IMG/VR virus record: IMGVR_UViG_3300049893_000899
Coordinates: 31,356-95,355 of that record
Source: a virus
DNA: 64,000 nucleotides
Direction: 5' to 3' (one strand)
The position numbers and the translations under genes were made by a program. This document shows positions 1 through 64,000 of the stretch, one piece after another. The notes beneath the pieces are model-generated. The model did no database searches. It saw only the letters and a program-made list of their open reading frames with translations, and was not told the origin of the DNA. Numbering within the stretch: the stretch's first letter is position 1; each line of letters begins with the position of its first letter.

Positions 1-1
1 A

Positions 2-301
2 GGAGATCTTAGAGTTGTTTTACAGCAATTATGCTTCTCTTGTGGTTTATCTCCAGAAGTTTTAAATATGATTGACCTTGAGGTTAGTAGATCTAATCAG
101 TCAAAGTTGTTTAAGGATTCAGATGAAGTTCTTGAAGGAAAATTAACTTACGAGAAAGAAGGGGTAGGTTGCTTTGTTGAACAGACTTCTGACAATTCTT
201 TTGTGTTAAAGAGAAATTCAGACAACAAAGTTTTAAAGAATAAAGCTAGTTTCTTTAAGCCTAGCTTTGATTTTTTAAGAACAATTATTAATTTTAAGTA
301 A
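2..301 (+). CDS. Hypothetical protein, 5'-truncated by window edge
   Basis: The frame of ORF 68..301 is open back to position 2 (GDLRVVLQQLCFSCGLSPEVLNM...). Confidence 0.6.
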   Translation, partial: GDLRVVLQQLCFSCGLSPEVLNMIDLEVSRSNQSKLFKDSDEVLEGKLTYEKEGVGCFVEQTSDNSFVLKRNSDNKVLKNKASFFKPSFDFLRTIINFK

Positions 302-320
302 TTATTTAAACAAGATAGAT

Positions 321-491
321 ATGACATCACAAGAATTATTTGCAGAAATCAATGTTCTTTTTGAACAGCTTCAAAATGAAACAACTAAAAAGAGTAAAGC
401 ATCAAAACTTAGAGCAAGAACTAAGTCAGTACAACTAAGCAAGATGCTTAAAGAATTTAGAGCTTTATCTCGCAAAGAAAGTAAACAATAA
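321..491 (+). CDS. Histone H1-like (Hc1-family) small basic DNA-binding protein, 56 aa; missed by the ORF track
   Basis: Translated by hand: MTSQELFAEINVLFEQLQNETTKKSKASKLRARTKSVQLSKMLKEFRALSRKESKQ. The KA..RAR..S..L.K.LKEFR..S pattern resembles Bacteroidota Hc1 proteins. A terminator follows. Confidence 0.75.
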   Translation: MTSQELFAEINVLFEQLQNETTKKSKASKLRARTKSVQLSKMLKEFRALSRKESKQ

Positions 492-497
492 AAAAAC

Positions 498-528
498 AAA
501 AAGGTTATCGAGAGGTAGCCTTTTTTTT
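498..528 (+). terminator. Rho-independent terminator
   Basis: AGGTTATC-GAGA-GGTAGCCT stem (two G-U pairs, GNRA loop) followed by a T run. Confidence 0.75.
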
Positions 529-539
529 ACTTATCAACT

Positions 540-1202
540 ATGAAACCAACAGAAAAATTATTAGGCTATTATTGGGCTGAAGAGCTCAACGATGTTTTAT
601 TGTCTGAAGAAATGAAGACAACATCAAGATATATCTCTGGAAGAAGAAACTTTGCAAGTGTACTTCCGGAACAACAAGAAGTATTCTCTTTATTCAAAAG
701 ACTTCAGCTAAAGAACATTAGAATTGTATTTATATCTGAAGCTCCAACAAGCACAAAGTCAGCAGCTTCAGGCATAGGATATGCTTCTTTAGATCCGTTT
801 GAAACATATCCTGAAAACAAAGCTTTAATCAATCATATTGAAAAGAACTTCAAAGATGGCATGTGGTTAACTCCAGATAGAGATTTAAAGGATTTAGTTG
901 CTAATGGAATATTCTTCTTAAACCAAGACTTAACTTGCGAAGAAGATAACAGAACGGCTCATAAAGGACTATGGGAATCCTTTACTTCATCTGTTTTGAA
1001 GCTTATTGCTAAAGAAGAAAGACCTATATGCTTTATCCTTTGGGGCCAATCAAATATAGAGTTCTTTGACAAAAATACTAAAGGGTTAGATTTGTCTATT
1101 CACAAAGTGTTTAAGAAAGAAGATATCAAAGAAGAGTCCACTTGCTTAAAAGAAGCTTGCGATTTTGTTGAGAGTTATTACAAACAAAAATTAATAGTAT
1201 AA
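540..1202 (+). CDS. Uracil-DNA glycosylase (family 1 UNG)-like protein with degenerate catalytic motifs
   Basis: IRIVFISEAP~VKVVILGQDP; GIFFLNQDLT~GVLLLNTVLT; AHKGLWESFT~SH..GWE.FT; FILWG~FLLWG. GQDPY and HPSP motifs are absent. Confidence 0.75.
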   Translation: MKPTEKLLGYYWAEELNDVLLSEEMKTTSRYISGRRNFASVLPEQQEVFSLFKRLQLKNIRIVFISEAPTSTKSAASGIGYASLDPFETYPENKALINHIEKNFKDGMWLTPDRDLKDLVANGIFFLNQDLTCEEDNRTAHKGLWESFTSSVLKLIAKEERPICFILWGQSNIEFFDKNTKGLDLSIHKVFKKEDIKEESTCLKEACDFVESYYKQKLIV

Positions 1203-1778
1203 ATGAGTAAGGAAAAGACTAAATTAGCAATGATACATCCATTTGATAGTAGTAAATCAATGACTGTACTTCATCTACTCCAATCTGAAATATGGTTGAA
1301 GCACATGATAGATCAGATTGAATATCAAACAAAAAAGTTTGGATGGAAGCAGAACAAAGAGTTCATGAACAAGACCAAGAACGCTTTGCAATCTATTAGG
1401 TTTTATAATCATTCAATCAGAGTTGACTACAATGATGATGAAATGTATGAGGTTACAGCAAAAGTGTCAGATCAAATCTGCAAAGTAGTAAACCTTTCAT
1501 CAGAAGACAGAGCTAAAGTTTATGAACTCATTGAAGAGCTTACAGGAACGCAAAGTAAGTTCACTACAGACCACACAGAACTAATCAAAGAGTATCTTGG
1601 AAAACTAGACGAAGCAAGAGTTAAGTATTCAAAGATAATAAAACAAGAATGCGTTGGAGCTGTTGTACTTGGAGGTGAGTTCCCTACTGTTGAAGATGCT
1701 ATCAATGCACATAACATATTAGCTAGGCTAAATGTTACATATCAGTATCCAGTTAATTTGATTAGTGAAATTAAATAA
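1203..1778 (+). CDS. Hypothetical protein
   Basis: 191-aa ORF abutting the upstream stop codon. Confidence 0.7.
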   Translation: MSKEKTKLAMIHPFDSSKSMTVLHLLQSEIWLKHMIDQIEYQTKKFGWKQNKEFMNKTKNALQSIRFYNHSIRVDYNDDEMYEVTAKVSDQICKVVNLSSEDRAKVYELIEELTGTQSKFTTDHTELIKEYLGKLDEARVKYSKIIKQECVGAVVLGGEFPTVEDAINAHNILARLNVTYQYPVNLISEIK

Positions 1779-1788
1779 GGCGGAAATT

Positions 1789-1995
1789 ATGAATTACCAA
1801 CAGCAATTAAATTCAATACACAGTTATCTTATGTATAAGAAATTCCCTTATCATAGTTTATCTGTGATACACAGACACCAAGATTTAGGTTTTCACGTTT
1901 TCTTTTCGGATGATGTAAAGGAAATGGTAACTGATGAAATTAAAGAGCATTTAGCTGCTTATGCGTTTCATTGGTCTTTCGTTAAAAGCAATTAA
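1789..1995 (+). CDS. Hypothetical protein
   Basis: ATG at 1789 preferred over the GTG at 1765, which overlaps the upstream gene. Confidence 0.6.
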   Translation: MNYQQQLNSIHSYLMYKKFPYHSLSVIHRHQDLGFHVFFSDDVKEMVTDEIKEHLAAYAFHWSFVKSN

Positions 1996-2013
1996 TATTT
2001 AAAACTATGGCAA

Positions 2014-2134
2014 GACTAACGGTTTGCAGATTGGCGTTGTTGCCACACAAATGTTTAATTGAAACACTAAATTTAATAATATGGAAAATGATAATTTGAA
2101 AACGGAAAGCAATAACGCCAATGTGCTGTTAGCT
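2014..2134. mobile_element. attC-like recombination site 1
   Basis: TAAC(2017)-GGTTT-GCAGATTGGCGTTGTTGC(2026-2043)...GCAATAACGCCAATGTGC(2109-2126)-T-GTTA(2128); arms 16/18 complementary. Confidence 0.7.
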
Positions 2135-2299
2135 GCTGTGCCTGATTGTAAAGATATGGATTACGATAAGGTAAGGGCTATCGGCAAGGAAAAGTATTGT
2201 ATAAAAGGAATAAGCTGTAATTTCTGCGACTTCATGGATAGAGATAGAGGTAAAATAAATAGTTGCGTTCAGGAGTATGTCAAAAGGCATTGCATCTAA
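2081..2299 (+). CDS. Cassette-borne hypothetical Cys-rich protein
   Basis: ATG lies in the loop of site 1; stop codon lies in the TAAC of site 2. Confidence 0.65.
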   Translation: MENDNLKTESNNANVLLAAVPDCKDMDYDKVRAIGKEKYCIKGISCNFCDFMDRDRGKINSCVQEYVKRHCI

Positions 2300-2424
2300 C
2301 GTTTTGCAGCTAACCGAAGTTGGCGATTACGAAGCACAAAAATTCAAATTAAATAAATGTTAAACCGAAGCACAACAGCTCATTTCAGCACTACACCGCC
2401 AATCTTGGTTAGGTGCTGTTATAT
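2294..2424. mobile_element. attC-like recombination site 2
   Basis: TAAC(2297)-GTTTT-GCAGCTAACCGAAGTTGGCG(2306-2325)...CGCCAATCTTGGTTAGGTGC(2397-2416)-T-GTTA(2418); arms 16/20 complementary. Confidence 0.7.
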
Positions 2425-2450
2425 GCTGTGCTTCTCAAATCTTAATTAAA

Positions 2451-2651
2451 ATGACAAAAGGAACTTTTCAAAAAACAGTAGAAAGTGCAGAATACGATTT
2501 TGTTCGTGATAAAGCACAAAGAGAAACGATTGAATTACTTGCTAAGACTTTGATTGAAGTTAGAAAGCACATGACCGCACACATTCCTGAAAAGGTATTT
2601 GATATGGTTGATGATGCACTTTCTAAGTCGGGTTTTCAGCATAGCATATAA
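2451..2651 (+). CDS. Cassette-borne hypothetical protein
   Basis: 66-aa ORF ending in TAAC; bounded by a 14/15-bp inverted repeat (2418-2432 / 2638-2652). Confidence 0.65.
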   Translation: MTKGTFQKTVESAEYDFVRDKAQRETIELLAKTLIEVRKHMTAHIPEKVFDMVDDALSKSGFQHSI

Positions 2652-2670
2652 CTACAATATATACGCAGTT
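2649..2670. repeat. Array-terminal (attI-like) module, copy 1
   Basis: TAACTACAATATATACGCAGTT; 21/22 identical to 5999-6020. Confidence 0.65.
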
Positions 2671-2692
2671 AAACAAATAAACAATTAAGAAA

Positions 2693-3139
2693 ATGAAAGA
2701 AAAAATAAAAGGCTTTTCCGACCCTAGGCTGGTCGGTAGAGAGGTGTATGTTAGGGATGTGAAGATGGTTATTAGTAAAATAAATGATAGCCACACAATG
2801 TGTATAAAAAAAGAGTACGGTATTAATCGTTCATTTCTTCATGATGGAAGGCATACTTCGATTGATTTACTACCTATTTTATCCTTCACACCATACACCG
2901 TAGAAATAAATGAAAACGGTCAAGTAACAATCAAAGGCTACTCGGATGAAATTGAATTAGAATCAGAGGACAAGCCGAAAGAGGGTGATTGTGGTTGGTT
3001 TTGGGATTCTGAATATTGTCGTTATTTTAGGTATGGTACGATTGCAAGAATAAGCTCTGCTTACTATATTGGTACTGCTCCTTACAAAAACTTCTCAAAA
3101 ACATGCCCTGAGTGGATTAAAGAAATTGTAAATAAGTAA
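2693..3139 (+). CDS. Hypothetical protein
   Basis: 148-aa ORF with A-rich leader. Confidence 0.7.
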   Translation: MKEKIKGFSDPRLVGREVYVRDVKMVISKINDSHTMCIKKEYGINRSFLHDGRHTSIDLLPILSFTPYTVEINENGQVTIKGYSDEIELESEDKPKEGDCGWFWDSEYCRYFRYGTIARISSAYYIGTAPYKNFSKTCPEWIKEIVNK

Positions 3140-3142
3140 AAT

Positions 3143-3415
3143 ATGGAAAAAATAAGCGTAAAAGATAATAAAGTTATTTTAACCGTAACGCCACAAGAAA
3201 CTAATAAGTTCTTAGAAAAGGGTACTATTATTTCATGGAATGAAAGTATTAATTTCCTCGAAAACTATAAATCTGATGAAATAGTAGATGTTGTTGATAG
3301 TAATAGTAAAATTGACTTAGAAGCATCTAAAATGCTAAAAAGAATATCTGAGCTAAATATAGAAAAAGAATTGTTAATTAATAAACTATTAGAAACATGC
3401 AAGGAAGAAAAATAA
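3143..3415 (+). CDS. Hypothetical protein
   Basis: 90-aa ORF in a tightly packed run. Confidence 0.6.
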   Translation: MEKISVKDNKVILTVTPQETNKFLEKGTIISWNESINFLENYKSDEIVDVVDSNSKIDLEASKMLKRISELNIEKELLINKLLETCKEEK

Positions 3416-3861
3416 AACACAAAGAAACTGGAGAGGTTTTTATATTCTTACAGTTTGAGGCTTCATCTAAGACTTTAGACGACAACAAACAAGTAGTATC
3501 ATTAGCTGTTATAGTAGAAGATAAAAACGGAAATATTTGTATTTTCTCAGCTAATGATGTGCAATTCGTAAAAGAAGAGCCTATCAAAACAGAAACAACA
3601 GGAATAGACATGATGAAGCATAAAGCGGAATCAATGCCGACCTTACAAAATAGCATTGAAGTGTGGGCGTGTATGGATAGAAGTGGATTTGTTAATATTG
3701 CAGCAAAAAAGAATTTCTATAAAAATAATGAAATTTGGAGCTCTCACGATGAGTTGTTTATGTCAACTAACATAGAAGACTTCATACAAGCATTCCAAGG
3801 CTTATCTTGGAACGATGAAGGACCTAAGAAGTTTAGAATTAGTGTAGAGCCTTTGGGGTAA
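3397..3861 (+). CDS. Hypothetical protein
   Basis: 154-aa ORF overlapping the upstream gene end. Confidence 0.65.
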   Translation: MQGRKIKHKETGEVFIFLQFEASSKTLDDNKQVVSLAVIVEDKNGNICIFSANDVQFVKEEPIKTETTGIDMMKHKAESMPTLQNSIEVWACMDRSGFVNIAAKKNFYKNNEIWSSHDELFMSTNIEDFIQAFQGLSWNDEGPKKFRISVEPLG

Positions 3862-3898
3862 CGAATAAAAGCCGTTTTATTATGGAAAAAACATCATT

Positions 3899-4093
3899 AT
3901 GTTGTTAAAATTATTAAAGAGATTATTCAAATCTAAAACAAAATCAAAAAAAGATTCTAAAACAAAATCAAAAGAAGATGTTTTTATTCTTAGAAAATAT
4001 TGTAGTGGTTGTGATTCTATTCAAGTGCATCACGATAGCCCTTTTGAAGAGCCATTTTGTTATAGATGTTATAATAGACAACATGGGTATTAA
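3899..4093 (+). CDS. Small basic protein with CxxC...CxxC (possible Zn ribbon)
   Basis: CSGC and CYRC motifs; internal 24-bp tandem duplication at 3932-3979. Confidence 0.55.
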   Translation: MLLKLLKRLFKSKTKSKKDSKTKSKEDVFILRKYCSGCDSIQVHHDSPFEEPFCYRCYNRQHGY

Positions 4094-4126
4094 AAAATAA
4101 AAGCCGTTTTACTTAGTAGGACGGTA

Positions 4127-4351
4127 ATGTTAAATTTAAAAGATAAGATTATGGACAACCTAAAATTGACGACACCATTTGTTCCACAGGAACAAAACAC
4201 TATCTTTATTATGCAAGATAATGGCACAAGAGAAATTCTAAAGCTTTGTGGAAACGGAGATATTTTCGTAAAAGGCAGATTAGCAGAAAATGACAAAGAA
4301 GTAGTTGATGCTTTAAGAGAGTTTCTCAAAGGGCAAGGCTTATTAAAATAG
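4127..4351 (+). CDS. Hypothetical protein
   Basis: 74-aa ORF between repeat copies. Confidence 0.65.
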   Translation: MLNLKDKIMDNLKLTTPFVPQEQNTIFIMQDNGTREILKLCGNGDIFVKGRLAENDKEVVDALREFLKGQGLLK

Positions 4352-4408
4352 CCGATAACAAATAAAAGCCGTTTTACTCGGTTTGTAGTAACTTTAAAAT
4401 GAAATAAA

Positions 4409-4684
4409 ATGAGCAACACAACATTAAATTTAAACAGCGTGGGTACAACTACAAGCGTCAGTCTTTGGTCAACACCTGAAAGAGTAGATGTAATTGAAAA
4501 CTCTGATAGTATCGAGTTCGTGTATAAAGAAACTTCAATGATTTCCTACACATCAATTCCAGCACCACCACCACAAGTAAGAGTTTTCAAAATCGTCTTT
4601 TCTTGTGTAGATGGCAAGTGGAATAAATCGGAAAGAATTTATGGTCAAATTGTTCCTGCTGAAAATGAACGATACGTTTTTTAG
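4409..4684 (+). CDS. Hypothetical protein
   Basis: 91-aa ORF between repeat copies, followed by a divergent attI-like module at 4694-4714. Confidence 0.7.
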   Translation: MSNTTLNLNSVGTTTSVSLWSTPERVDVIENSDSIEFVYKETSMISYTSIPAPPPQVRVFKIVFSCVDGKWNKSERIYGQIVPAENERYVF

Positions 4685-4751
4685 CATTGCCTATAACTAT
4701 CAGATATGTGCAACAAACAAATAAAAGCCGTCTTACTAAACGATTAAGAAA

Positions 4752-5243
4752 ATGGAAAAAGTATTAGAAAAATTCACTATTGATGATGTGGAGGTTGGTG
4801 ATGTTTTTCTTCATAAACACAATAAATCAAGATTTACTGTTTCAGAAAAACATAAAGATAAAGGTTATATTCTTTTAAAAAGTTATGGAGCACTTTGGGC
4901 TTTAAGTTTTTACTATTTCGATCTAATTAAAAAAAGTAATAAAACTGAAACACAAACAGAGGAACAATTAATAGAACAACAGCCAACCTCAATAAAATCC
5001 GTCTTATCAGGTATTGACAAGCTTCTAGAATACAAAGAAAGTAAGTATGGCAATGCACTAAACAACGATCGTTTAAAAGTGTTTTCTGGTAAATGCAAAT
5101 TTGGAGATATACTTGACGCAAAACTAAACAGAGTAGCCAACGGAGAAGAGCTACTAAAGAACGATGTTGTAGATATAGCAGGCTATCTAATCCTAACACT
5201 AAGAGAAAAAGGATGGGATGATTTTAGTGAGTTTATGGACTGA
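4752..5243 (+). CDS. Protein with C-terminal DUF1599/Nmad1-like (all-alpha nucleotide pyrophosphatase-like) domain
   Basis: LLEYKESKYGNA...DAKLNRV...DVVDIAGYLIL pattern. Confidence 0.6.
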   Translation: MEKVLEKFTIDDVEVGDVFLHKHNKSRFTVSEKHKDKGYILLKSYGALWALSFYYFDLIKKSNKTETQTEEQLIEQQPTSIKSVLSGIDKLLEYKESKYGNALNNDRLKVFSGKCKFGDILDAKLNRVANGEELLKNDVVDIAGYLILTLREKGWDDFSEFMD

Positions 5244-5639
5244 AAATAAGGCTTAAATTTATGAGATATGACTGAAAAAGAATTGTTAATTGAGTTGTGT
5301 AATAATCTTGAAAAAGAACTCAATCAAAGAGATGGAAAGAAAACGCATAAAGTACAATTACAAAGCGGATTAAAGCCTGAAAACTATTTCGTTCCAATGA
5401 TGAGCATAGGAATAACAAGAAAATCGTATAATGGTGTTAGTATGGCTTGGTTTGTTGAAGTGTGGGTTGATGGAAAATGTATATTCAGAGAATCACATGT
5501 GCCACACAAAACAGAAAAGCTTGAAATAGTTGAAGGATTTTTGATTAAAAGGGTTTTCAGACACATCTTCACATTTGGAGTTATGTCAAGTAAAAAAACC
5601 ATTGATGAACTTGTGTGAATTATGGACTGAAAATAAGGC
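5233..5639 (+). repeat. Perfect 20-bp direct repeat TTATGGACTGAAAATAAGGC flanking ORF 5268..5618
   Basis: Copies at 5233-5252 and 5620-5639. Confidence 0.9.
5268..5618 (+). CDS. Hypothetical protein (apparently inserted gene)
   Basis: 116-aa ORF between 20-bp direct repeats. Confidence 0.7.
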   Translation: MTEKELLIELCNNLEKELNQRDGKKTHKVQLQSGLKPENYFVPMMSIGITRKSYNGVSMAWFVEVWVDGKCIFRESHVPHKTEKLEIVEGFLIKRVFRHIFTFGVMSSKKTIDELV

Positions 5640-5641
5640 GG

Positions 5642-5774
5642 CAATAACGGTTTGAAGCTATGCTTAGTTGCGGACTTAAATAACAAAATTTTTAATTAAC
5701 AACAAAATATAATAAAATGGAAAAAGTATCAGATTACAACGGAACTCCGCAATTAGGCATAGCTGCAGTTAGCA
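5642..5774. mobile_element. attC-like recombination site 3
   Basis: TAAC(5645)-GGTTT-GAAGCTATGCTTAGTTGCGGA(5654-5674)...TCCGCAATTAGGCATAGCTGC(5746-5766)-A-GTTA(5768); arms 18/21 complementary. Confidence 0.7.
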
Positions 5775-6001
5775 GCCGTTTTAATTTCGGACAAGAGGTG
5801 TGGTTCTTAAATGGACGACACATTATGAATGGTAAGATAGAAGCTGTTAGAGGGCAGAAACATTGCCTATACGAACACACCGACATTGAATTGGAAGTTT
5901 ACCATACAAGCGGTGAAATAGGGTGTAAGTTTTGGGTAAAAGATGAAGATTGTTTTGAAAGCAGACAAGCGTTGATAGATGCGGTCTTAAATGGCTGCTA
6001 A
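5717..6001 (+). CDS. Cassette-borne hypothetical protein (possible SH3-like beta barrel)
   Basis: ATG in the loop of site 3; FNFGQEVWFL...GKIEAV; ends in GGCTGCTAAC, complementary to GTTAGCAGCC at 5768. Confidence 0.7.
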   Translation: MEKVSDYNGTPQLGIAAVSSRFNFGQEVWFLNGRHIMNGKIEAVRGQKHCLYEHTDIELEVYHTSGEIGCKFWVKDEDCFESRQALIDAVLNGC

Positions 6002-6020
6002 CTATAATATATACGCAGTT
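5999..6020. repeat. Array-terminal (attI-like) module, copy 2
   Basis: TAACTATAATATATACGCAGTT. Confidence 0.65.
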
Positions 6021-6070
6021 CAAACTAAATAAGGCGGCAATAACTGCCGTCTTACTAAAAATAAATTATC

Positions 6071-6457
6071 ATGAGCGAATTTAGAATAGATTACTTTGAA
6101 CTTATGTTCTTAGCAGAATCAGTATCACCAAAAGGACCTATTGCACGGTCAATGTGCTTTGATAGCTTCTCTGATAAGCACTACCACCACATGAATGAGG
6201 GACAACGATTGCAGTTCTTTAATTACGTGCAAAAGCAACCTTACTTTACACTAGAAGACGAGCAATGCAGGCACTTTTACGCAAGATTTAATCCACAGAA
6301 TCAATACAAAGTTTCTTGCTTCTACGATGGAAAGGCACAAACAGTAGATTGCTATAGATTTGAAGACGAGTATAGGGTATCTAGGAATAGATTTATAAAT
6401 AGTGACTACATTAAAAGTATCGTTAGGGTTTACGATGGAGTGGTTATCAAGCAATAA
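6071..6457 (+). CDS. Hypothetical protein
   Basis: 128-aa ORF between repeat copies; its stop codon lies inside the repeat. Confidence 0.7.
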   Translation: MSEFRIDYFELMFLAESVSPKGPIARSMCFDSFSDKHYHHMNEGQRLQFFNYVQKQPYFTLEDEQCRHFYARFNPQNQYKVSCFYDGKAQTVDCYRFEDEYRVSRNRFINSDYIKSIVRVYDGVVIKQ

Positions 6458-6497
6458 GGCGGCAATAATTGATGTCTTACTTAAATAATATTAATCT

Positions 6498-6986
6498 ATG
6501 GCAAATATTTGTGATGTATACGTTGAGTTCTACAACGTGAAAGATGAACAAAAACATCTTATTACTGAAGAAAACTTCAAGAATGAAGAAATCAAAACAA
6601 ACAACGACGGTTGGGTTGATATAGAGTTTGTTAATGAAGGACTAAACACGTTATCTATGTCCTCAGCGTGGTCAGCTCCTATTTCTTGGTTTGAAGGTTT
6701 TTGCGCTGAACATGGCTTAGATGGAAGAATGTATTTCTATGAGCCTGGATGTTGTTATCATGGATATGCTGACGTTACAGATGGCCACATTCAAACAACA
6801 TACTATGATAATAATTTTGAATATCTTTACCTACATAATAACGAAGGCTTCTGGGATGAAGTAAATTATTTCTTAGAAGAAGATATGCTAGAAGAAGAAG
6901 AATGGAATGAAAGAGTTCTTAAGTATATTTCTCTTGAAGATAAGAAAACATTAATTGAAATGATTGAAAAACAAAAAAAGGGATAA
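6498..6986 (+). CDS. YubB/DUF1281-like ferredoxin-fold protein
   Basis: SAWSAP..WF...YFYEPGC.Y.G motif. Confidence 0.55.
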   Translation: MANICDVYVEFYNVKDEQKHLITEENFKNEEIKTNNDGWVDIEFVNEGLNTLSMSSAWSAPISWFEGFCAEHGLDGRMYFYEPGCCYHGYADVTDGHIQTTYYDNNFEYLYLHNNEGFWDEVNYFLEEDMLEEEEWNERVLKYISLEDKKTLIEMIEKQKKG

Positions 6987-7008
6987 CTTCGGTTATCCCT
7001 TTTTTTTT
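6973..7008. terminator. Bidirectional Rho-independent terminator at the convergence of the accessory and virion modules
   Basis: A7-GGGATAAC-TTCG-GTTATCCC-T9. Confidence 0.9.
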
Positions 7009-14765: not shown

Positions 14766-17312
14766 TTAAGACTTTGCTGCGCAATAAATATTATATGATG
14801 AACCTGTAAATCCCGATAAGTTAGCAGGCATCCCTGACGGTGATCCTGAAACGAATTTACTTTTTGATATAGCGGCATCACTTGCTGCTGTTGTTTGAGC
14901 AAAAGTACAAGCACCAACTCCTTCTAATACTGCAAACCAATAAGACACACCAGCGGTAAGAGTAACAGAGCTACATGCTCCTGATGCAAATCCAACAGCA
15001 TTTGTTGAAGCTGATGCAGATGCTAGTAATGTATTTCCGTCAGCACTATAAATACCTAAATAAACAGTTGAAGCTGACAAAGATTTTACAAATGTATTAA
15101 TAGATGTAATAGTTACCGTCTTATCTGCTACAACCAAAGAAGCATAACAAGTGCCACTAAGAGCAACCCCTGTGCTACTCATTGTAATAGGATAGTTAGA
15201 TATTGAACCAGCGGAAGAGCCTCCTGACACAGTCTTTAATCCTACTTTACCTGTTGTGTTGTCATAATAATAAACTTTACCATCATCACTCAATGTAGGA
15301 TTCAATGCAGTAGTATCAAGCTCTTTCTGACCAATACCGAAAGAATAGTGCCATGCAGTTCCGTTGTAGAATTGATGTTTGTTTGTGTTGTATCGTATTG
15401 CCCCTGCTGTTGTGGTTGTACTATCGCCCACAACCATAGCTTTATTAGTGTTTAATCCTATTTGACCAGTAGATGTTAATTGTAGTAAACCAGTTGTTGT
15501 GCTGAAATTTAAAACGTTACTACTTAGGTCGTCACTCCACACTCTAAAACCTTGTTGAGCTACTACTGTAACAGGCTGACCGTTAAATAAGGCTACTATG
15601 TTGCCATAAGTACCACCATGCCCCTGCCCCCATAAACGTAGAGTTCTAGTGCCTAACACATTAAGGTTGGTCTCTGTATTATTAGATGTTATATTAAATA
15701 ATTCGCTTGTACCTACTCCGTTCCAAAAACGCAATCTTGAATCGGCACCATTTGCGCCTATTGAAACCTCGGCATTTGAACCTAACAACTTAGACTCAAA
15801 CGCTACCCTCGCCCCTGTACCTGCTAAATCTTCGACGTATAAATGTCTGTTTGTAGTAACAGTTTGGGATTTAGATATTCTAACATCACCAGTAAACGGC
15901 ATATTTGAGCCGTCTAATTTCGCATAACCATTAAGCAAACTTTTAACTGATCTAAATGAAGGTATGTAATTATCATCTAGTGTTATAGTGTTTTCTTTAG
16001 CTATCGCATTAGTGTCGTACCTTAAAAGACCGCTTTTAGTGTAGATATAATCAGCATCAACAGAATCATCAAACTGAAAGCCGAATCCATTCGATACAAT
16101 ACCTAAATAAGACCTAACATAATTACCAGTATCACCACCATCTAGCTCTACGAAGCTTTGCATCTCGGTTGAATAAGTTGTGGCTAAAGCATCAACCTTC
16201 TGGGAAGCAAAACCAAACTCACCAAATTGAACATCAAGACCGTTTGACGAGTGAGTCCTAGTTACCTGAAATTCTGAATCATTAAATGAAAAAGTAGATG
16301 TATATCCATTTTTAAATAAAATTCCATTTATCCCATTTGTAGTATCTATTCCTAAATTTCCACTAACGCCAGTATCAGTAATAGAAAAAGAAGCGTTTGT
16401 TTTTGCTCTTGCTATAAAAGTGCCTAATCTAGTCCCAGTAGTATTTCCTCCTAAAGAAAGAGTAAACGTTCCGTTGCTATTTAGAGTGGTGTTTTTAGTT
16501 AATGCGTTTGTGCCTCCAAATTCAACAACTCCAGAAACATTTGTCAATCCATTTGTGAATGTAGGCATTGAAACACTTGCCAAGTCATACTTGCCAGCGG
16601 TGTTGTCCCATACTAAGAATTTGCCGTTTTCTGTTAAAGTAGGTGATAAGGCGGCATTTGTTAATTCCTTAGTCCCTAAGTATCCTTGTAACTGAATAAT
16701 CCCATCTGCGTCTTGAAACGTTTGTGTTCTTGCAGGGCCAGCAAGTGTCATGTCGAAAAACATTCTCTGTCCAACCCCTTTATTATAGAACATTAATCCG
16801 TTTCTTAATCCTATCTGTCCATTTCCAGAACCTCCTTGTAATTTCGTAACATTGTATGTTCCATCGTGTTGCTCAACATACAAACCGCCTCCATTATTAT
16901 ACGTAAATGCCCCACCTAACAAAGGCGTTGAATTATCTGGCAGTCGTAATTGACCATCGGTAAAATCTATAGTAAACCCAAAATTACCAGCAGATATGAT
17001 TGTATCCTTAGTTAATGGGCCTTCAAGTCTAACAATACCACCAGATTCGGTTAATGCATTTTCAAACGTGAAAGAAGTTCCTGCGCTAAATTCAACTAAA
17101 TTTCCATTAGCAACACCATCTTTATACCAATACTTCTTATCACCTGATCCATCGTTAATAACAACAGTAAGACCTCTATATCTAAATGACAAAGGTATTG
17201 TATTATTAGCTTCTGTTACTGAGGCGTATGGAGTATAATCAGAACGAAGCGACTTAGCTTCCGAAGGCTTCCCTGAATTTATATATATATTATCACTTAA
17301 TGCTATTGCCAT
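14766..17312 (-). CDS. Tail fibre / receptor-binding protein
   Basis: 848 aa, G/T/S/N-rich, with internal repeated modules. Confidence 0.75.
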   Translation of the reverse strand: MAIALSDNIYINSGKPSEAKSLRSDYTPYASVTEANNTIPLSFRYRGLTVVINDGSGDKKYWYKDGVANGNLVEFSAGTSFTFENALTESGGIVRLEGPLTKDTIISAGNFGFTIDFTDGQLRLPDNSTPLLGGAFTYNNGGGLYVEQHDGTYNVTKLQGGSGNGQIGLRNGLMFYNKGVGQRMFFDMTLAGPARTQTFQDADGIIQLQGYLGTKELTNAALSPTLTENGKFLVWDNTAGKYDLASVSMPTFTNGLTNVSGVVEFGGTNALTKNTTLNSNGTFTLSLGGNTTGTRLGTFIARAKTNASFSITDTGVSGNLGIDTTNGINGILFKNGYTSTFSFNDSEFQVTRTHSSNGLDVQFGEFGFASQKVDALATTYSTEMQSFVELDGGDTGNYVRSYLGIVSNGFGFQFDDSVDADYIYTKSGLLRYDTNAIAKENTITLDDNYIPSFRSVKSLLNGYAKLDGSNMPFTGDVRISKSQTVTTNRHLYVEDLAGTGARVAFESKLLGSNAEVSIGANGADSRLRFWNGVGTSELFNITSNNTETNLNVLGTRTLRLWGQGHGGTYGNIVALFNGQPVTVVAQQGFRVWSDDLSSNVLNFSTTTGLLQLTSTGQIGLNTNKAMVVGDSTTTTAGAIRYNTNKHQFYNGTAWHYSFGIGQKELDTTALNPTLSDDGKVYYYDNTTGKVGLKTVSGGSSAGSISNYPITMSSTGVALSGTCYASLVVADKTVTITSINTFVKSLSASTVYLGIYSADGNTLLASASASTNAVGFASGACSSVTLTAGVSYWFAVLEGVGACTFAQTTAASDAAISKSKFVSGSPSGMPANLSGFTGSSYNIYCAAKS

Positions 17313-18287: not shown

Positions 18288-18851
18288 TTATGATAATGTT
18301 ATTTCTTGTGTTCTAAAAATACTGAATTTAAACATATCCTTCAATGAAGGCATAACATTCAATGCGTAGAAGTCAACCTCGTTGATATAAAGAGGATTTC
18401 CTTGTTCATCAACTTTTACAGTTCCAACAAGTTCTTGATTAATAACTTCTGTGTTGTCTTCATTATATTCAGGCTGAACTAAAGCAATATTTGCTCCAAC
18501 AACAACAGGTACTCCAGTAGTAGCAAAAGCATCTAAATCAACATACTTTTCAGTTGTTGCAACTGCTGGTCTATAAGTACGAGGATCATCGTTTGAGTTT
18601 ACTTGTAGTTGCCAAACTCCACCACCCCATACGCCATCTGTTTTAACTCCTCCAACATAAAGCTCTGTCTTCTGAATGTTTTCAATTTTCTTAGTATCTG
18701 CGTTTGAACTAAATGCGGTCATGTGCGTTCTCATTAACACTATACCATTTAATTCATACTCTACAGTTACTATTTGAGTAGCATTTGATTTCTCTACAAA
18801 CTGACCATTAACGATTTCACTATAATAGTCTCTTACATAAATTTTAGCCAT
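18288..18851 (-). CDS. Hypothetical protein in the fibre cluster
   Basis: 187-aa ORF tightly coupled to its neighbours. Confidence 0.65.
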   Translation of the reverse strand: MAKIYVRDYYSEIVNGQFVEKSNATQIVTVEYELNGIVLMRTHMTAFSSNADTKKIENIQKTELYVGGVKTDGVWGGGVWQLQVNSNDDPRTYRPAVATTEKYVDLDAFATTGVPVVVGANIALVQPEYNEDNTEVINQELVGTVKVDEQGNPLYINEVDFYALNVMPSLKDMFKFSIFRTQEITLS

Positions 18852-51553: not shown

Positions 51554-52240
51554 ATGAAAAATTCAGTTATACTAAATAGTTCTGATCGCGAGTTATTCGG
51601 AACAATAATAAGACAAGATACGAAAACACAAATGTTAAGTGTTTCAGATTTACAAAAAGCTTATGAAAAAGGAAGATGGCAATATGGTTGGACTGGGCAA
51701 ACAATAAGTCAACTAATGCTTACTGATGAATTGGCTAAAAAGTGCTACGGAGTGCTTCTTGAGTGCGATCTGGTAAAATGCGACATGTCGAATTTTATGG
51801 AAATGGTAAAAAATAGCAGCCTTATAGTTGTTTTAAAAAAACTAGAAGCATATAAAGTAACAGGAAGAGGAGACAATAAACAAATATTTGCTCACCCATA
51901 TATTTTTGTTACAATAGCAATAGAGTTGAATTATATTTTATATGGAAAGGTTATAAAATGGATTTCAGACAGCCTTATTTTCAACAGAATAGAAGCAGGC
52001 GTACTATATCAACCAATGAATTCAGCTATAAAGTCAATCATAAATAATCCTGACTATTCAAAATATGCAATATTAATAAACAAAAAAATATTCGGGCAAC
52101 ATATAACAGGAATGAGAAATATGGCTTCAGCTAAAGAATTAAAGTCGATAGCTAAATTAGAAGAAACCGTAACGAAAGCTATTGAGATGGGATGGGTTAA
52201 AAATGAAGAAGATTTAATTAATGCAATAAACAACTTGTAA
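51554..52240 (+). CDS. KilA-N domain protein
   Basis: IIRQDTKTQMLSVSDL...GRG...FAHPYIFVTIA.EL...VIKW; counter-oriented within the virion module. Confidence 0.8.
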   Translation: MKNSVILNSSDRELFGTIIRQDTKTQMLSVSDLQKAYEKGRWQYGWTGQTISQLMLTDELAKKCYGVLLECDLVKCDMSNFMEMVKNSSLIVVLKKLEAYKVTGRGDNKQIFAHPYIFVTIAIELNYILYGKVIKWISDSLIFNRIEAGVLYQPMNSAIKSIINNPDYSKYAILINKKIFGQHITGMRNMASAKELKSIAKLEETVTKAIEMGWVKNEEDLINAINNL

Positions 52241-52244
52241 TATT

Positions 52245-52388
52245 ATGACAGATAAACAGAAAAGAGATAAAATAATCCTAGAGATCAGCACGATAAGAAA
52301 AAATCTAAGGATTGCTATAGACAAAAAGATGTGGAGTTACGTAGATTCACAGATACAAAGATTAGTTGCTCTTGAGAGTAAGATATAA
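52245..52388 (+). CDS. Small hypothetical protein (47 aa), missed by the ORF track
   Basis: MTDKQKRDKIILEISTIRKNLRIAIDKKMWSYVDSQIQRLVALESKI; fills the gap between KilA-N and the terminator. Confidence 0.5.
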   Translation: MTDKQKRDKIILEISTIRKNLRIAIDKKMWSYVDSQIQRLVALESKI

Positions 52389-59023: not shown

Positions 59024-61474
59024 TTATTTTTTTCTAGCAGCTTCAGCATTAGTCTTGTTCTTAAGAGCAGTCTTAGCTTTAAGCTTCTCTATCTCCATCT
59101 TATTCTCCATCTCCTCTCGCTTAAGCTCTCTATCCTTCTCTTTCTCCTTCTCATTAGAAGTTCTATCCTTCTCTCTCTGTTGAGCTTCACTCGTCTGTCT
59201 TGACTTCTCGATAGCTTTATTACCCCATTCAATAACATCAGGGATATTATTCATATTTCTATCTTTCTCTTCATCAAAACCAGAAGCAACAATAGTAGCT
59301 TTAAGAATATCATTCTCTCTATCAAGTTGATTCTCCATAGCCTCAAACTCTCTAGCCTCTCTCTTATCTTGTAATTGAGCCTGAACAGCTTGATCTCTTG
59401 ATTCTCTTTCAGCTTGAGCTTGTTGAGCTTGACTCTGTTCAAGTCTAACCTCTCCATTCTCAATATATTCAATACCTTCAATAAGAGAAGCAGATCTGTA
59501 TAATTTAGCCAAGTCAGAAAGATTAACCTTACCCTGTTGTAAAGCAGCTTCTGCCAATGCTTCAATGCGCATTTTATTTCTCTTATCTTTAGAGTAGTTA
59601 GAGATAAACACTCCAATATCAGAATCCATTAACATCTCTCCGTCAACAAGTAAAGATTGTACTGTATTGTCTTTCGACATATAAGTGAATCTTTTCCCTC
59701 CAGCAGTAGTAAACTTAGACATCTCAATATAAGCTGTTAATACAGCTTGTTTAATCTCGTCATGTCTAAAGAAGTAATGCTCAGTAATATAGCCTGAATT
59801 AATTAAAGCTGTATTAAGACCAGTAGTAGTTTCATATTGAGAAGTGGAGCCAAGTTGTTGTGGGTTCATTCCGCACACTTGGTCCATCAGGAACTCAATC
59901 TTAGCCATAATACCAATATACTGTTGTACTACGTTAGCTAAAGACAAGTCTATACTCTGGAACTGATTAAACCTAGAAACAGAGTTAGGATCTCCATCTC
60001 TACCTTCTTCCATTGAGTTAATCCAAGCAATACCAAGGTTATCAAAGTAGTACATCCATTGCTTCATGTCTATACCGTTTGATTTAGGTATCTGAGCCAA
60101 GTCAAACACCATCTTCTTACCTTTTGCTTTAGCTATCTCATTTTCAAGTCTTAACCAGATAGTATTATACAACATCTGATACGGAGCAAGTAAATCAACT
60201 ATACTTGTCGCTTCAGAGTTTAAGTTATTATACAATCCACCAATATAAGGAGACCACACCTCTGTAGGGCTGTCAATCTTTCTCATTTGGTTTCTACAAG
60301 GATTAATGTCAACATAGATGTCAGCGCCAATCTTATGTCCCATCCAATATTCTGGCAACCATTGCCACTCTAAAGTAGCCCCAATAGCTTTAAGCTCTTC
60401 TGTTAGCTTGAATGAATCATCTACGTCTTCCGTCATTGGCATCCCAGATTCAGGATCAACATACGAAAGATATCCAATCTTCTTCATTGACTTCCACACA
60501 CAAGTAACAACTCTAATGTTTCCATTGTATCGTTGATTTACATTGTATGTATCTAAATCCTTCATTGTAGCCGCATCATACGCGAATCCAGGGTACATGA
60601 TATTGTTACTCATTGAGTTAACAATCTCCCCATCATCAAGCATCTTCAGTTGAGCTTCAGTAAGGTATAATCCAAATTCATCTATAACTTCCCCTCTTGA
60701 CATGAAGCGTTCCTCTCTCTGCCAATCAGATAAGTGAACCCATTCAGTCTCAGGCCCTTTTTCAAACTCAAAGTTTAATGGGTTTACAACCCTTAAAGAC
60801 GTCCTTCCATTTACCGCCCCAACATAATAAACCTCTTCTGAAGCTATTGCGGCATGGCTGAATCCTTTGTTAAACTTAGCCGGCAATCTATCTGAGTGCA
60901 TTGCATCTTCAACTATCACTGAAGCGTAATGTTCTCTGATGTCTCTAATTGTTCTGCCGGTGTTCATTTGTTTCTTAAGCTCCTTGAAAGAAAGGATTGA
61001 ATCCATCTTTTGCTCAATCTCTGGATCATTTGGATCAAGCTGAAAAATAGCCATTAACTTCTGCTGTGTAGTCATTAACAACTCTTGTGTCTGTTGTTCT
61101 ACCTTAGAGTTAACAACGTGGCCACCAACTCCAACAACATGGTAATCAAACGGTCGCTCTAACTCTTCCCCAACCAATCTATCAACCCTAATCCTTACTA
61201 AGTTATAGTCTCTAAGCTTAGAAGGAGAACCTCCAAACTGTCCGCCAAACTTAAAAGGGTCTGTCACATACTTATAATTCTCCTCATTTATTCTGGAGTT
61301 CATTAAGTCATAGTTAGCCTGTTTGCTTTGCTTAGATGAACGACCATTCCTCTTCAAAGAGAAAGCCATACCATCAACAGCATCAACACATTGCTCTCTC
61401 CATTTGTCAGTCTTCTTTGACAAAGGAAGCATCTGTTGAGGTAAATACCTCTGGATATTAATGTCTGTACTCAT
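59024..61474 (-). CDS. Portal protein
   Basis: 816 aa; LP.Q.LP..KK..KW, L.GEE..RPF, VVNP, S.VD.L.PYQ..YN; follows the terminase. Confidence 0.9.
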   Translation of the reverse strand: MSTDINIQRYLPQQMLPLSKKTDKWREQCVDAVDGMAFSLKRNGRSSKQSKQANYDLMNSRINEENYKYVTDPFKFGGQFGGSPSKLRDYNLVRIRVDRLVGEELERPFDYHVVGVGGHVVNSKVEQQTQELLMTTQQKLMAIFQLDPNDPEIEQKMDSILSFKELKKQMNTGRTIRDIREHYASVIVEDAMHSDRLPAKFNKGFSHAAIASEEVYYVGAVNGRTSLRVVNPLNFEFEKGPETEWVHLSDWQREERFMSRGEVIDEFGLYLTEAQLKMLDDGEIVNSMSNNIMYPGFAYDAATMKDLDTYNVNQRYNGNIRVVTCVWKSMKKIGYLSYVDPESGMPMTEDVDDSFKLTEELKAIGATLEWQWLPEYWMGHKIGADIYVDINPCRNQMRKIDSPTEVWSPYIGGLYNNLNSEATSIVDLLAPYQMLYNTIWLRLENEIAKAKGKKMVFDLAQIPKSNGIDMKQWMYYFDNLGIAWINSMEEGRDGDPNSVSRFNQFQSIDLSLANVVQQYIGIMAKIEFLMDQVCGMNPQQLGSTSQYETTTGLNTALINSGYITEHYFFRHDEIKQAVLTAYIEMSKFTTAGGKRFTYMSKDNTVQSLLVDGEMLMDSDIGVFISNYSKDKRNKMRIEALAEAALQQGKVNLSDLAKLYRSASLIEGIEYIENGEVRLEQSQAQQAQAERESRDQAVQAQLQDKREAREFEAMENQLDRENDILKATIVASGFDEEKDRNMNNIPDVIEWGNKAIEKSRQTSEAQQREKDRTSNEKEKEKDRELKREEMENKMEIEKLKAKTALKNKTNAEAARKK

Positions 61475-63676
61475 TTATTCAAATAGTTTTTCTTCAAGAA
61501 AGAAATCCTTTCTAATCTTTTTACCCGAACCTTCCTCTATCTTTATGTAATGATGTTGGAGTCTATTGCATATAAGTAATAAGAACGCTATTACACGGTC
61601 AAAGTTACCTGTCTTATTATACGATATCAACTCCTTCAACAAACCAGCAGAGAATATCTTGTTTACTCCAAGAACACCAGCTTCATCTTCTTCATTAAGC
61701 CAGTCCCTCGCGTAAATCTCAAGCTCCTCCTTAATCTTGTTTGTCATATGTATGCCGTAATCCCTATCTACATTACTCTTTTCTGTAGCCTTAAGAAATG
61801 TAGGCATTTTTGCTAACAAATGTAACGATTTTTTTTGCTTAAAGTGAAACTTCATTGAATTTTTCTCATTCTCGTACAGATTGGTAGCGTTATAATAAGC
61901 ACACAATCTCCTAACATTCTCATGGTGTTCTTCTGCCCTATCAGGTCTTGCAGTGTATTCAGCAACAATAAACTCCCTCGCGCTGCCGTGTCTAAAGTCG
62001 CCAATCTTATAGATAAAAGTAGATCCTAACGAAACTGAGTTAGGAGCCTTGTCTTGGTCATAGGGGTCTGTCGCTGCAATATACATACCATAAGGAATCT
62101 CTCCAGGTGCCGGGTGTTCCCATATCTGTACTGAACCAGTGGTATCATCTGTAGATTTCATTGGAAACCCACAAGCTCTTTTCTTGTTATGTAAATCCGG
62201 AGACCACTTAACGCCATACGTAGCATTAGGATCCGAAACTAAATCACCTAGTTGTCCATTTACTTGAGGAATATCGCAGTTTTCTACAAACTTCAACTGA
62301 TCAATTAAGTCTGCAATAGGGAATATGTTACCTCCGGATATTAAGAAAGCTTCAGAAGGCACAATAGGGTTGTTTTGTAGTTCATTATTCAACGGTTCTT
62401 TACTTGAACCTGAAGCCAACTTGTCCCTCTTGCTGTCAATATATTTCATTGCCTGTTCCTTCTTAGTGAACAGGTTATTGTCTTTGAAGTCATTCAAGCC
62501 TTTATAGTAAGGCAAGAAGTAACCTATCTTCTTTGCTGAGCCTTCAAAAGCATCAGAAAATCCTAAACAGTCAAACTGCTCAGGGTTATAGAATATCTCT
62601 TTAAGCTGTTCTGTAGCTCCAGAGATCATTTCACCACCGGTACCAAAAACCCATATAACTCCAAATTTAGAAGAGGAGTTCATGGTATTCTCTTTCAAGG
62701 CACCCATGGCATCAATAAGGTTAGACATAAAACCTGCCTCTTCAATAAAGACTAAGTTGTTACGCAAACCGTTACCTGCTGTAGCCTTCTCTTGGAATGT
62801 TCTATGTGATATCATAGAACCACTACCCTTCACCTTACCAGTCTTCAAGTCTTTAACACTTGCCAACATATCCTTACCAGGCATCAATGACCCTGAAGTT
62901 TCATGCTGGAAAGGAGCCATATAGTACATATCCCCCTCTTCAAAAGAACCATATAGGTTATTATACCCATCAAGGAACTTATCAAGCAAACCCTTGCTAT
63001 ACTTAGCATCAAACGCTCCAACAAGAGAAGAACTTCGTAAAGGCTCCCCTGCTTTTTTAGCATCTACATACTGTTCATATCCTTCAGCTCCATCTGTAAT
63101 AAAGTTATGACATAACAAAGCCGCAGCAAAGAAAGACTTACCAGTACCCCTGGCCTCAAGGTCAACAACATTCTTAGCTTCGTTCTTATATAAAGGAATA
63201 CCACTTAGATTGTGGCTATCCCAAAGATAACTCAACGCGTCTACATACTCCTTAAAAGAACCATCTTCTTTAAACACTGTAACATCAAGGAAGTGAAACC
63301 TATAGTCTTCTTTTATAGCTTCAAAGTCTCCATTATACTCTTCGTTAAGTTCTTTTACAAGCCTAACACAGGTCTTTTCTTTATCATCACTGAAGCCAGA
63401 AAAGCCTTTAGCTACAAGATAGATATAGGCTTTCTCCCATTCATTATCTCGTAGCCAAGGCCTTCCTAATATCTCCTGTTTAGAAAACCTATCTTTCTTA
63501 ACCTTAATCTTGAAGTGGTTAACATAGAAGTAAAGAACCCCAGGGCAATAATACCCTCCAGCCCACATACCATCAAAGACTCTTCTCTTCTCGTCCTTCC
63601 AGTATATCTTGTACTCCATACTTTTAGGATGAAAGATTGGAGCCTCGTTGAAAGTATATAAACTAGGATTTCTCAT
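61475..63676 (-). CDS. terL: Terminase large subunit
   Basis: Walker A ARGTGKS, Walker B VFIEEAG, FGTGG, nuclease DPYD and NFDRV. Confidence 0.92.
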   Translation of the reverse strand: MRNPSLYTFNEAPIFHPKSMEYKIYWKDEKRRVFDGMWAGGYYCPGVLYFYVNHFKIKVKKDRFSKQEILGRPWLRDNEWEKAYIYLVAKGFSGFSDDKEKTCVRLVKELNEEYNGDFEAIKEDYRFHFLDVTVFKEDGSFKEYVDALSYLWDSHNLSGIPLYKNEAKNVVDLEARGTGKSFFAAALLCHNFITDGAEGYEQYVDAKKAGEPLRSSSLVGAFDAKYSKGLLDKFLDGYNNLYGSFEEGDMYYMAPFQHETSGSLMPGKDMLASVKDLKTGKVKGSGSMISHRTFQEKATAGNGLRNNLVFIEEAGFMSNLIDAMGALKENTMNSSSKFGVIWVFGTGGEMISGATEQLKEIFYNPEQFDCLGFSDAFEGSAKKIGYFLPYYKGLNDFKDNNLFTKKEQAMKYIDSKRDKLASGSSKEPLNNELQNNPIVPSEAFLISGGNIFPIADLIDQLKFVENCDIPQVNGQLGDLVSDPNATYGVKWSPDLHNKKRACGFPMKSTDDTTGSVQIWEHPAPGEIPYGMYIAATDPYDQDKAPNSVSLGSTFIYKIGDFRHGSAREFIVAEYTARPDRAEEHHENVRRLCAYYNATNLYENEKNSMKFHFKQKKSLHLLAKMPTFLKATEKSNVDRDYGIHMTNKIKEELEIYARDWLNEEDEAGVLGVNKIFSAGLLKELISYNKTGNFDRVIAFLLLICNRLQHHYIKIEEGSGKKIRKDFFLEEKLFE

Positions 63677-64000
63677 TCGCTTCTCTCTCTCTTCTTTCTT
63701 CTAAACTACCATAACTAAGTCTACATAAAGCAGTGAAGTCCATTTTGTCCCTCTCTTCTTCTGATAACTTATAAAACTCAGGTCTAGCGTGCTTAACACG
63801 CCTTCTTAATGTCCACACTCCAAGGCCAGGTAATATTATACTCTTAACCTCTGGATCGTCCATCATCTTAGTTATCAAGTCAAACTGAGCCATAAACACT
63901 AAGTCTATATCCTCCGGCTTTAACTTAGTACCATCAGCACTAACTCCACCAAGTCTCTCAATAACTCTCTTATAAATTTTTAATCTTTGCTGTGTTAACA
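63663..64000 (-). CDS. HU/IHF-like small protein, 5'-truncated by window edge
   Basis: Frame is open from 63899 to the edge (LTQQRLKIYKRVIERLGG...); ILPGLGVWT resembles the HU I.LPGFG.F motif. Confidence 0.5.
   Translation of the reverse strand, partial: LTQQRLKIYKRVIERLGGVSADGTKLKPEDIDLVFMAQFDLITKMMDDPEVKSIILPGLGVWTLRRRVKHARPEFYKLSEEERDKMDFTALCRLSYGSLEERREREANEKS

Follow-up and report, generated by a model that had tools for sequence, protein, structure and literature searches.

A conserved intergenic motif between interchangeable small genes of a crAss-like phage, a probable expression leader and candidate joint for short-homology recombination

An array in which one short direct repeat alternates with single small genes raises the question of whether the repeat is the trace of gene insertion, a joint at which genes are shuffled, or a signal that serves the expression of the genes beside it. 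We analysed such an array in a window of 64,000 nucleotides, bases 31,356-95,355 of the 95,355-base IMG/VR virus record IMGVR_UViG_3300049893_000899; positions without a prefix refer to this window. The first and last 4,835 bases of the record are identical (window 59166-64000 corresponds to record bases 1-4835), and the genome therefore measures about 90.5 kb. The record is classed as 'linear', yet its identical ends indicate a circular or terminally redundant molecule. With a G+C content of about 33%, the genome encodes giant proteins of 3,728, 1,281, 1,473 and 1,444 aa, and its terminase, portal and major head protein each match the PHROG family for that function. The major head protein is 41-43% identical to those of uncultured gut crAss-like phages, with further matches that include Bacteroides, Flavobacterium and Cellulophaga crAss-like phages. 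Judged from these PHROG matches, the head-protein identity and the giant proteins, the source is a crAss-like phage (Crassvirales), and its host presumably belongs to the Bacteroidota.

The plus-strand genes of this phage run from a genome position of about 7.7 kb to window 6986 and specify helicases, a DnaB-like helicase, a primase, a Sak4-like single-strand annealing protein, an exonuclease and a pyrophosphohydrolase, while the structural genes occupy the minus strand from 7025 onward; the array thus lies in the last 3 kb of the replication arm (Table 1). In phi14:2, one crAss-like phage that has been studied, the virion RNA polymerase transcribes the replication arm, which constitutes the early class, and no common upstream motif was detected for the early transcripts (10.1101/2020.03.07.982082). 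Elsewhere on the plus arm of the present genome, outside the window, two ORFs carry long in-frame 12-nt tandem repeats of one family (TCAAGTARGGRNTC...; L056:9033-9210 and L056:11616-11850, equal to record 16033-16210 and 18616-18850), which could be repetitive proteins or iteron-like DNA.

The repeat AATAAAAGCCGTYTTAYT occurs exactly, always on the plus strand, at 3864-3881, 4096-4113, 4361-4378 and 4720-4737, and copies with two mismatches on the same strand lie at 4991-5008, inside a gene, and at 6039-6056. Allowing up to three mismatches gives seven matches, whereas 100 dinucleotide shuffles give 0.61 on average and 3 at most. At up to two mismatches the whole 95,355-base record holds six copies, all within 2.2 kb, so that a genome-wide scan adds none beyond the region 3864-6056, and the reversed pattern used as a control finds no matches in the same record. 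In-frame 12-nt coding repeats aside, no 14-mer but this motif and the related AATAAGGCGGCAATAA reaches three copies in the genome. A genome-wide promoter family was ruled out, as a 9-mer count over 39 intergenic regions returned no other high-copy motif; Rfam contains no family matching these elements.

Much of what the initial annotation had described at this locus holds. The four exact copies are where it placed them; one ORF (64, 74 and 91 aa) separates each copy from the next; the three encoded proteins, which it had called unrelated, have no mutual similarity; and the copies, said to follow a stop codon by a few to about 35 nt, do so at gaps of 2, 2, 9 and 35 nt. A TAAC does stand ahead of the 3864 and 4361 copies, and the 4720 copy does follow a repeat family, at 4678-4712. 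Two points call for revision. The 74-aa ORF is probably a 66-aa gene starting at ATG 4151, since all of its homologues begin there and in the relative L054 a stop codon directly follows the upstream ATG. The 18-bp unit is genuine as a repeat, but it is not the conserved unit: the consensus of twelve distinct intergenic copies, drawn from this genome and from its relatives, is AAC(a)AATAAAAGCCGTYTTA, and what is conserved is a unit of about 21 nt in which AAC and an A-tract precede the left arm of a GC-rich stem-loop, that is, half of a hairpin.

Table 1. Coordinates of the array and of the features that adjoin it (window positions).
Feature	Position	Strand	Remarks
Anchor gene (154 aa)	3397-3861	+	Upstream of the array in all relatives; 46-77% aa identity
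Motif copy R1 (AATAAAAGCCGTTTTATT)	3864-3881	+	2 nt after the anchor stop codon; no strong hairpin
orf64 (64 aa; CxxC...CxxC small protein)	3899-4093	+	Absent from L054 and L050
Motif copy R2, full stem-loop (GCCGTTTTAC / GTAGGACGG)	4096-4124	+	dG -11.4 kcal/mol, z -3.1
orf74 (74 aa from 4127; probably 66 aa from ATG 4151; phrog_16927)	4127/4151-4351	+	3' tail TAGCCGATAAC
Motif copy R3	4361-4378	+	Weak alternative hairpin
orf91 (91 aa)	4409-4684	+	100% identical in L054 and L050
Second leader module (..TATAAC N6 ATATGTGCA)	4678-4712	+	Repeat family D4; also 2633-2667 and 5983-6017
Motif copy R4	4720-4737	+	14 nt before ATG 4752; 3' arm reduced to TAAGA
orf163 (C-terminal part phrog_1485-like)	4752-5243	+	Motif-like copy 4991-5008 inside
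20-bp direct repeat TTATGGACTGAAAATAAGGC, copy a	5233-5252	+	End of orf163 plus AAAATAAGGC
orf116 (116 aa)	5268-5618	+	Between the 20-bp repeats; absent from L050
20-bp direct repeat, copy b	5620-5639	+	Non-coding
Composite motif copy R6	6028-6056	+	Hairpin GGCGGCA-ATAAC-TGCCGTC; dG -14.4 kcal/mol, z -5.6
Two-way terminator-like hairpin	6973-7006		Junction of the plus arm with the minus (structural) arm

Five of the six copies in this genome are intergenic and stand 14-37 nt ahead of the start codons of small genes without named function, in the stretch 3864-6056 at the end of the plus arm. When the relatives are included (12 copies), the distance from motif to ATG is 30-39 nt for the hairpin-bearing copies and copy 4361 (30 nt), 14-17 nt in another class, and 0 to -2 nt in a third, in which the motif touches the ATG or runs into it. 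The ATG directly after R1 (3882) opens only 8 codons; one added A in the run at 3886-3891 would fuse it in frame with the ORF at 3899-4093, and the start of orf64 may be 3882 in some variants.

Comparison with relatives answers the central question, that of the gene content between the copies. A single metagenome scan with a 22-nt version of the motif retrieved seven related contigs, which are short. Two of them, L054 and L050, come from two different assemblies and match the window at 88-100% identity wherever they share sequence with it. After the anchor gene this window reads motif, orf64, motif, orf74, motif, orf91, motif, orf163, and both close relatives read motif, orf74, motif, orf91, motif, orf163: they lack exactly 232 bp, comprising orf64 and one motif copy, with the junction inside the motif. 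L050 also lacks 387 bp between the 20-bp direct repeats, namely orf116 and one copy of that repeat, which is partly coding and is not a regulatory signal. Just one of the indels has the 18-bp motif at its boundaries. In the more distant relatives the anchor protein is 46-61% identical and the motif matches at 16-18 of its 18 positions, with the order motif, orf85, motif, orf75, motif after the anchor in L047 and orf69, motif, orf83, motif, orf125 and onward in L052, L053, L055 and L046. Save for one 53-aa ORF, the genes of L047 and the L052 group (orf85 and orf75; orf83 and orf125) have no homologue in this genome. The signal is thus better conserved than any neighbouring protein, for the motif persists while the proteins diverge or differ. 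The exception, the 53-aa ORF of the L052, L053 and L055 array, has a counterpart of 64% protein identity at 52239-52379, on the plus strand within the minus arm; related phages thus keep the same small gene in different parts of their genomes.

As far as these sequences go, the copies are non-random, confined to one region and near-identical in relatives that carry unrelated genes between them; the junctions of whole-gene gains or losses between close relatives fall inside direct repeats; and the genes that the motif separates are interchangeable. The gene content between repeats, which the initial annotation had proposed to compare among relatives, is not invariant, as L054 and L050 lack one repeat period and L047, L052, L053, L055 and L046 carry unrelated genes, and this variation supports the repeat-mediated gene shuffling that the annotation had offered as one interpretation. 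Exchange reaches into the genes as well. The window and the pair L054 and L050 form a mosaic, with 100% identity across 4250-4790 and strong divergence across 3640-3860 and 4790-4960, and the switches between identity levels lie inside genes, near 3640, 4250 and 4790; these levels point to allele exchange inside genes too. Among the three close relatives the N-terminal 60 or so residues of orf163 (the 4790-5008 region) are hypervariable, and its conserved C-terminal part starts about 16 nt before the in-gene motif copy at 4991, which is kept in L050 through a synonymous change.

The upstream neighbour of the array is its constant element. Homologues of the anchor gene are present in L054, L050, L047, L052, L053, L055 and L046, and the family numbers 8 proteins in 5.8 billion searched; the anchor gene always adjoins the motif. 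The predicted structure (pLDDT 75) consists of two small, conserved beta-barrels, N- and C-terminal, with a variable insert between them. Against the PDB this model has no significant fold match, and the leads it gives are weak ones, Tudor-, KOW- and ProQ-C-like, from which nucleic-acid binding would be a possible but unsupported property. Individual array genes range more widely. Homologues of orf74 with 80-83% identity occur in seven other viral contigs of 11-48 kb (among L058-L065), with five weaker ones besides, and modules like the second leader also flank orf74 homologues in other phages; homologues of orf91 (44-84% identity) occupy 12 loci, spread over 11 viral contigs, and at none of these is the motif present. 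The motif is absent from five near-complete, distant crAss-like genomes whose major capsid proteins are 59-65% identical. An 18-mer scan of IMG/VR produced eight single matches, which we take as chance, the one examined (L014) being unrelated. A scan of species genomes produced nine single matches and no multi-copy host element; several of these, e.g., L070 and L073, fall in apparent protein-coding sequence. The 514-aa neighbour, orf64, orf163 and the anchor alignment each retrieved no match from IMG/VR.

The best explanation of these observations, with a probability of roughly 0.6, is that a conserved expression leader doubles as a short-homology recombination joint, in the manner of the PeSL (promoter-early stem-loop) cassettes of T4-type phages. 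The 18-bp repeat would be the conserved 5' part of a short leader cassette that precedes small accessory ORFan genes and is kept by selection as a functional element in a hyperplastic region where the replication (early-type) arm ends. Transcribed with its genes, the cassette would act at the RNA level through a sense-strand hairpin that follows an A-rich tract, with processing, stability and translation insulation as candidate roles; some copies could also form part of a promoter. Because the same 20 or so nucleotides recur every 230-360 bp and in co-infecting relatives, the copies could serve as homology patches: annealing of neighbouring copies would delete a gene, and crossovers in two copies with a co-infecting relative would add or replace one. 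Such recombination would probably run through the phage's own Sak4-like annealing protein (phrog_2872, E 9e-39, L056:15451-16179) and exonuclease (phrog_107, E 3e-45, L057:5201-5992), both encoded outside the window, which plausibly make up a short-homology recombination system. What we infer in this account is which enzymes act, in which direction each event went and how the motif serves expression.

Not every junction in the region fits an exchange by short homology. In five independent cases homology between genomes stops exactly after a TAAC, a tetranucleotide found only 28 times in 7 kb. These are the orf74 3' tail TAGCC(T/G)ATAAC, with at least four different continuations; the orf91 3' tail; the orf91 head; the loop of the GGCGGCAATAAC hairpin, with three continuations; and an alignment of L046 with L052 in which identity falls from 100% to about 75% directly after GCTAAC (window 4349-4359, 4682-4697, 4388-4391, 5640-5648 and 6036-6044; L058-L065, L079 and L046/L052). 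The orf74 homologues of L058-L065, for instance, share the 3' tail up to the TAAC and then diverge. Four nucleotides are too short for homologous recombination, and these endpoints suggest a preferred, perhaps enzymatic, junction at the ends of gene units. Long imperfect inverted repeats, with TAAC as their first and GTTA as their last letters, lie at 5645-5771 and in L058 and L065. The one in the window, about 127 nt long and attC-like in look, encloses the start codon of the ORF at 5717-6001 and has a paralogous leader at 2002-2090; those in L058 and L065 come after the orf74 homologues.

These junctions are the strength of a site-specific cassette system, in which TAAC-bounded units would be moved by an unrecognised, possibly host-encoded integron-type recombinase and the recipient (attI-like) or leader side of the site would include the 18-bp motif. 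The recurrence of so rare an endpoint, the TAAC-to-GTTA inverted repeats adjoining some units and the anchor-proximal position of the gene that is extra in this genome, orf64, all agree with it. We nevertheless regard such a system as unlikely. The phage genome is complete and encodes neither a tyrosine nor a serine recombinase. Searched in six frames with PF00589 (Phage_integrase), the complete record had no match, with positive controls, and searches of the phage genome for Resolvase (serine recombinase) and Cas1 found none, with positive controls in each; a host-encoded recombinase may act in trans. The motif, with a 9-bp stem, is far shorter than an attC site, the flanking TAACs are direct and not inverted, and the right end of the orf64 unit is without a TAAC. 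Moreover, the TAAC often includes or follows the stop codon and belongs to a repeated leader module, and since it is tied to both, function could fix it in place. The link that the initial annotation drew between the array and a cassette system rests on a TAAC junction that is real and recurrent, but the 18-bp motif as such does not resemble attC.

Repeated insertion with duplication of a fixed target, the other mechanism proposed in that annotation, finds some agreement in the sequence. Three different sequences flank single-gene units as duplications of similar lengths (16-18, 20 and 18 bp), one of them partly coding, and the orf64 unit that only this genome carries adjoins the anchor. Cuts 17-20 bp apart in a fixed target, repaired into duplications as in CRISPR-spacer or casposon insertion, would produce such lengths, and the duplication at 5233/5620 copies the coding end of the upstream gene, where it has no obvious function. 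However, the genome encodes no detected Cas1 or other integrase or resolvase, the inserts share no common terminal features, the motif in relatives also occurs singly and in variant forms beside unrelated genes, and one illegitimate joint could equally give a 20-bp duplication. Staggered-cut insertion is accordingly very improbable, and it and the site-specific system, even when taken jointly, account for only a small share of our expectation. A further reading, about as unlikely as the site-specific system, makes the locus a true cassette-exchange platform, on which TAAC-bounded single-gene units would be inserted beside the anchor by an unrecognised sequence-specific enzyme, supplied by the host or being the two-barrel anchor protein itself, and the 18-bp motif would be a recipient-side signal duplicated with each insertion.

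In some copies the motif has the hairpin of the leader that our preferred reading, the expression leader doubling as a joint, assumes. The left arm of the stem-loop is GCCGTYTTA and the right arm is TAAGACGG(C), which is present at the 4096 copy, L054, L047-363 and L052-1740 (dG -7.8 to -15.1 kcal/mol, z -1.7 to -5.6). A hairpin forms in 5 of the 12 distinct copies, with dG in the same range; the remaining copies (3864, 4361, 4720, L047-699, L047-939, L052-2085 and L046-821) fold no better than shuffles. In the four hairpins with a downstream arm, pairing holds for 97% of cells. Three of the changes affect one side only and leave G.U pairs; compensatory double changes are absent among these hairpins. 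Owing to these G.U pairs the sense strand folds better than the antisense strand (-11.4 vs -4.9, -7.8 vs -3.2 and -14.4 vs -11.8 kcal/mol). In the composite copy R6 the right arm of the hairpin is the motif's own GCCGTC, and related copies occur at 5632-5648 and 6453-6481.

Termination does not explain the hairpin. There is no U-tract 3' of it on the plus strand, and a GC-rich hairpin followed by a U-tract on the transcribed strand, as in an intrinsic terminator, is found on neither strand. Minus-strand terminators (a hairpin plus T-tract on the reverse complement) were considered, and a T-tract does follow on that strand, but they were rejected, as the G.U pairs become C.A mismatches on the antisense strand and most copies have no second arm. 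A scan for sigma-70-type consensus sites returned 15, against 30 in shuffles, i.e., below expectation, and Bacteroidota -33/-7 promoters (TTG N17-23 TAnnTTTG) were rejected, since all 13 matches lie in coding DNA and none is intergenic. A -35/-10 reading as TTTACW N15-17 TAAAAT-like fits 5 of the 12 copies, four hairpin-bearing ones and R3, where the pair is also listed by the sigma-70-type scan, and fails in the other seven, three of which abut or overlap the ATG. No promoter consistent across the motif copies was therefore found with either the sigma-70 or the Bacteroidota consensus. Our guess, from the sequence, is that the expression role is that of a sense-strand RNA element, an A-rich tract and then a hairpin, within a polycistronic early transcript; a purely structural RNA role would be insufficient because the seven hairpin-less copies are equally well conserved.

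It may be asked whether expression alone would suffice, the motif being a purely regulatory signal (promoter, processing site or operator) whose repeat indels reflect incidental slippage, with no role in gene exchange. A degree of conservation that exceeds that of the neighbouring proteins, a hairpin that favours the sense strand, and a TTTACW/TAAAAT-like pair that can be read in four hairpin-bearing copies and in R3 would all be at home under this explanation. We consider it improbable, given that both whole-gene indels between close relatives are bounded by direct repeats, that beyond the anchor the distant relatives match this genome only in the motif and the 53-aa ORF, and that the promoter reading does not extend to 7 of the 12 copies. 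The reiterated expression signal that the initial annotation had set against gene shuffling is, from the conservation and the sense-strand hairpin, probably also true, but it is not an exclusive alternative to shuffling.

Among known systems the nearest is that of the PeSL cassettes, at whose repeated units T4-type phages exchange genes (Arbiol et al. 2010, PMC2839356; Comeau et al. 2014, PMC4122927). Both are short repeated intergenic units with an AT-rich part, which includes the stop codon upstream, a stem-loop (strong in 5 of the 12 copies here) and a downstream start; both are concentrated upstream of ORFan genes in a hyperplastic region of small ORFans; and in both the breakpoints of insertions, deletions and replacements between relatives lie at the units. 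Here the 232-bp indel has its junction in the motif, the 387-bp indel lies at the 20-bp repeat, and L047, L052 and L046 have unrelated genes between conserved copies. PeSL cassettes are in addition characterised by a strong sigma-70-like early promoter (-35/-10) and by mini-circles that recombination between neighbouring cassettes forms. The present motif differs in that it has no sequence relation to PeSL and no demonstrable sigma-70-type promoter, in that its hairpin is without a U-tract and missing from most copies, in that about six copies lie in one 2.2-kb stretch as against about 50 across a PeSL genome, and in that it belongs to a Crassvirales phage of a presumably Bacteroidota host.

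Integron arrays (attC, e.g., Vibrio VCRs, and CALINs, which have no integrase) share with this locus the alternation of a repeat with one small promoterless gene, gene content that varies between relatives, junctions that recur at ..AAC and, nearby, long imperfect TAAC-to-GTTA inverted repeats such as that at 5645-5771. They differ in that this genome has no IntI and its repeat is nearly invariant and lies 5' of the genes, and in that an attC site is an imperfect palindrome of 57-141 bp with RYYYAAC/GTTRRRY ends, whereas here the unit has 18-21 nt and a stem of at most 9-10 bp. The likeness to CRISPR that had been remarked upon exists in the layout and goes no further: CRISPR repeats of 23-50 bp alternate with short non-coding spacers beside cas genes, whereas the spacers here measure 214-341 bp and each carries an ORF, and no Cas1 is present. 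In lambdoid phages short conserved boundary sequences between modules are proposed crossover points for mosaicism. As here, these are short conserved sequences at gene boundaries, but they are single sequences common to genomes and are not arrayed in tandem inside any one of them.

CrAss-like phages are among the most abundant phages known, and their small accessory genes likely have host-takeover and counter-defence functions. To our knowledge, the uptake and exchange of many small accessory genes by crAss-like phages has not been described, and our literature search on repeated intergenic cassettes in Crassvirales found no paper. Three points are particular here: the setting in a crAss-like genome, the TAAC junction, and a leader in which no promoter can be recognised. 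With its defined signal of about 20 nt and its natural single-gene variants, the locus offers a concrete place in which the punctuation of early crAss-like transcripts and gene turnover driven by short repeats can be tested. Should the TAAC junction prove enzymatic, it would represent a new mechanism of gene capture, and a cassette-exchange platform, if true, would mean integron-like gene capture in a lytic phage without a known integrase.
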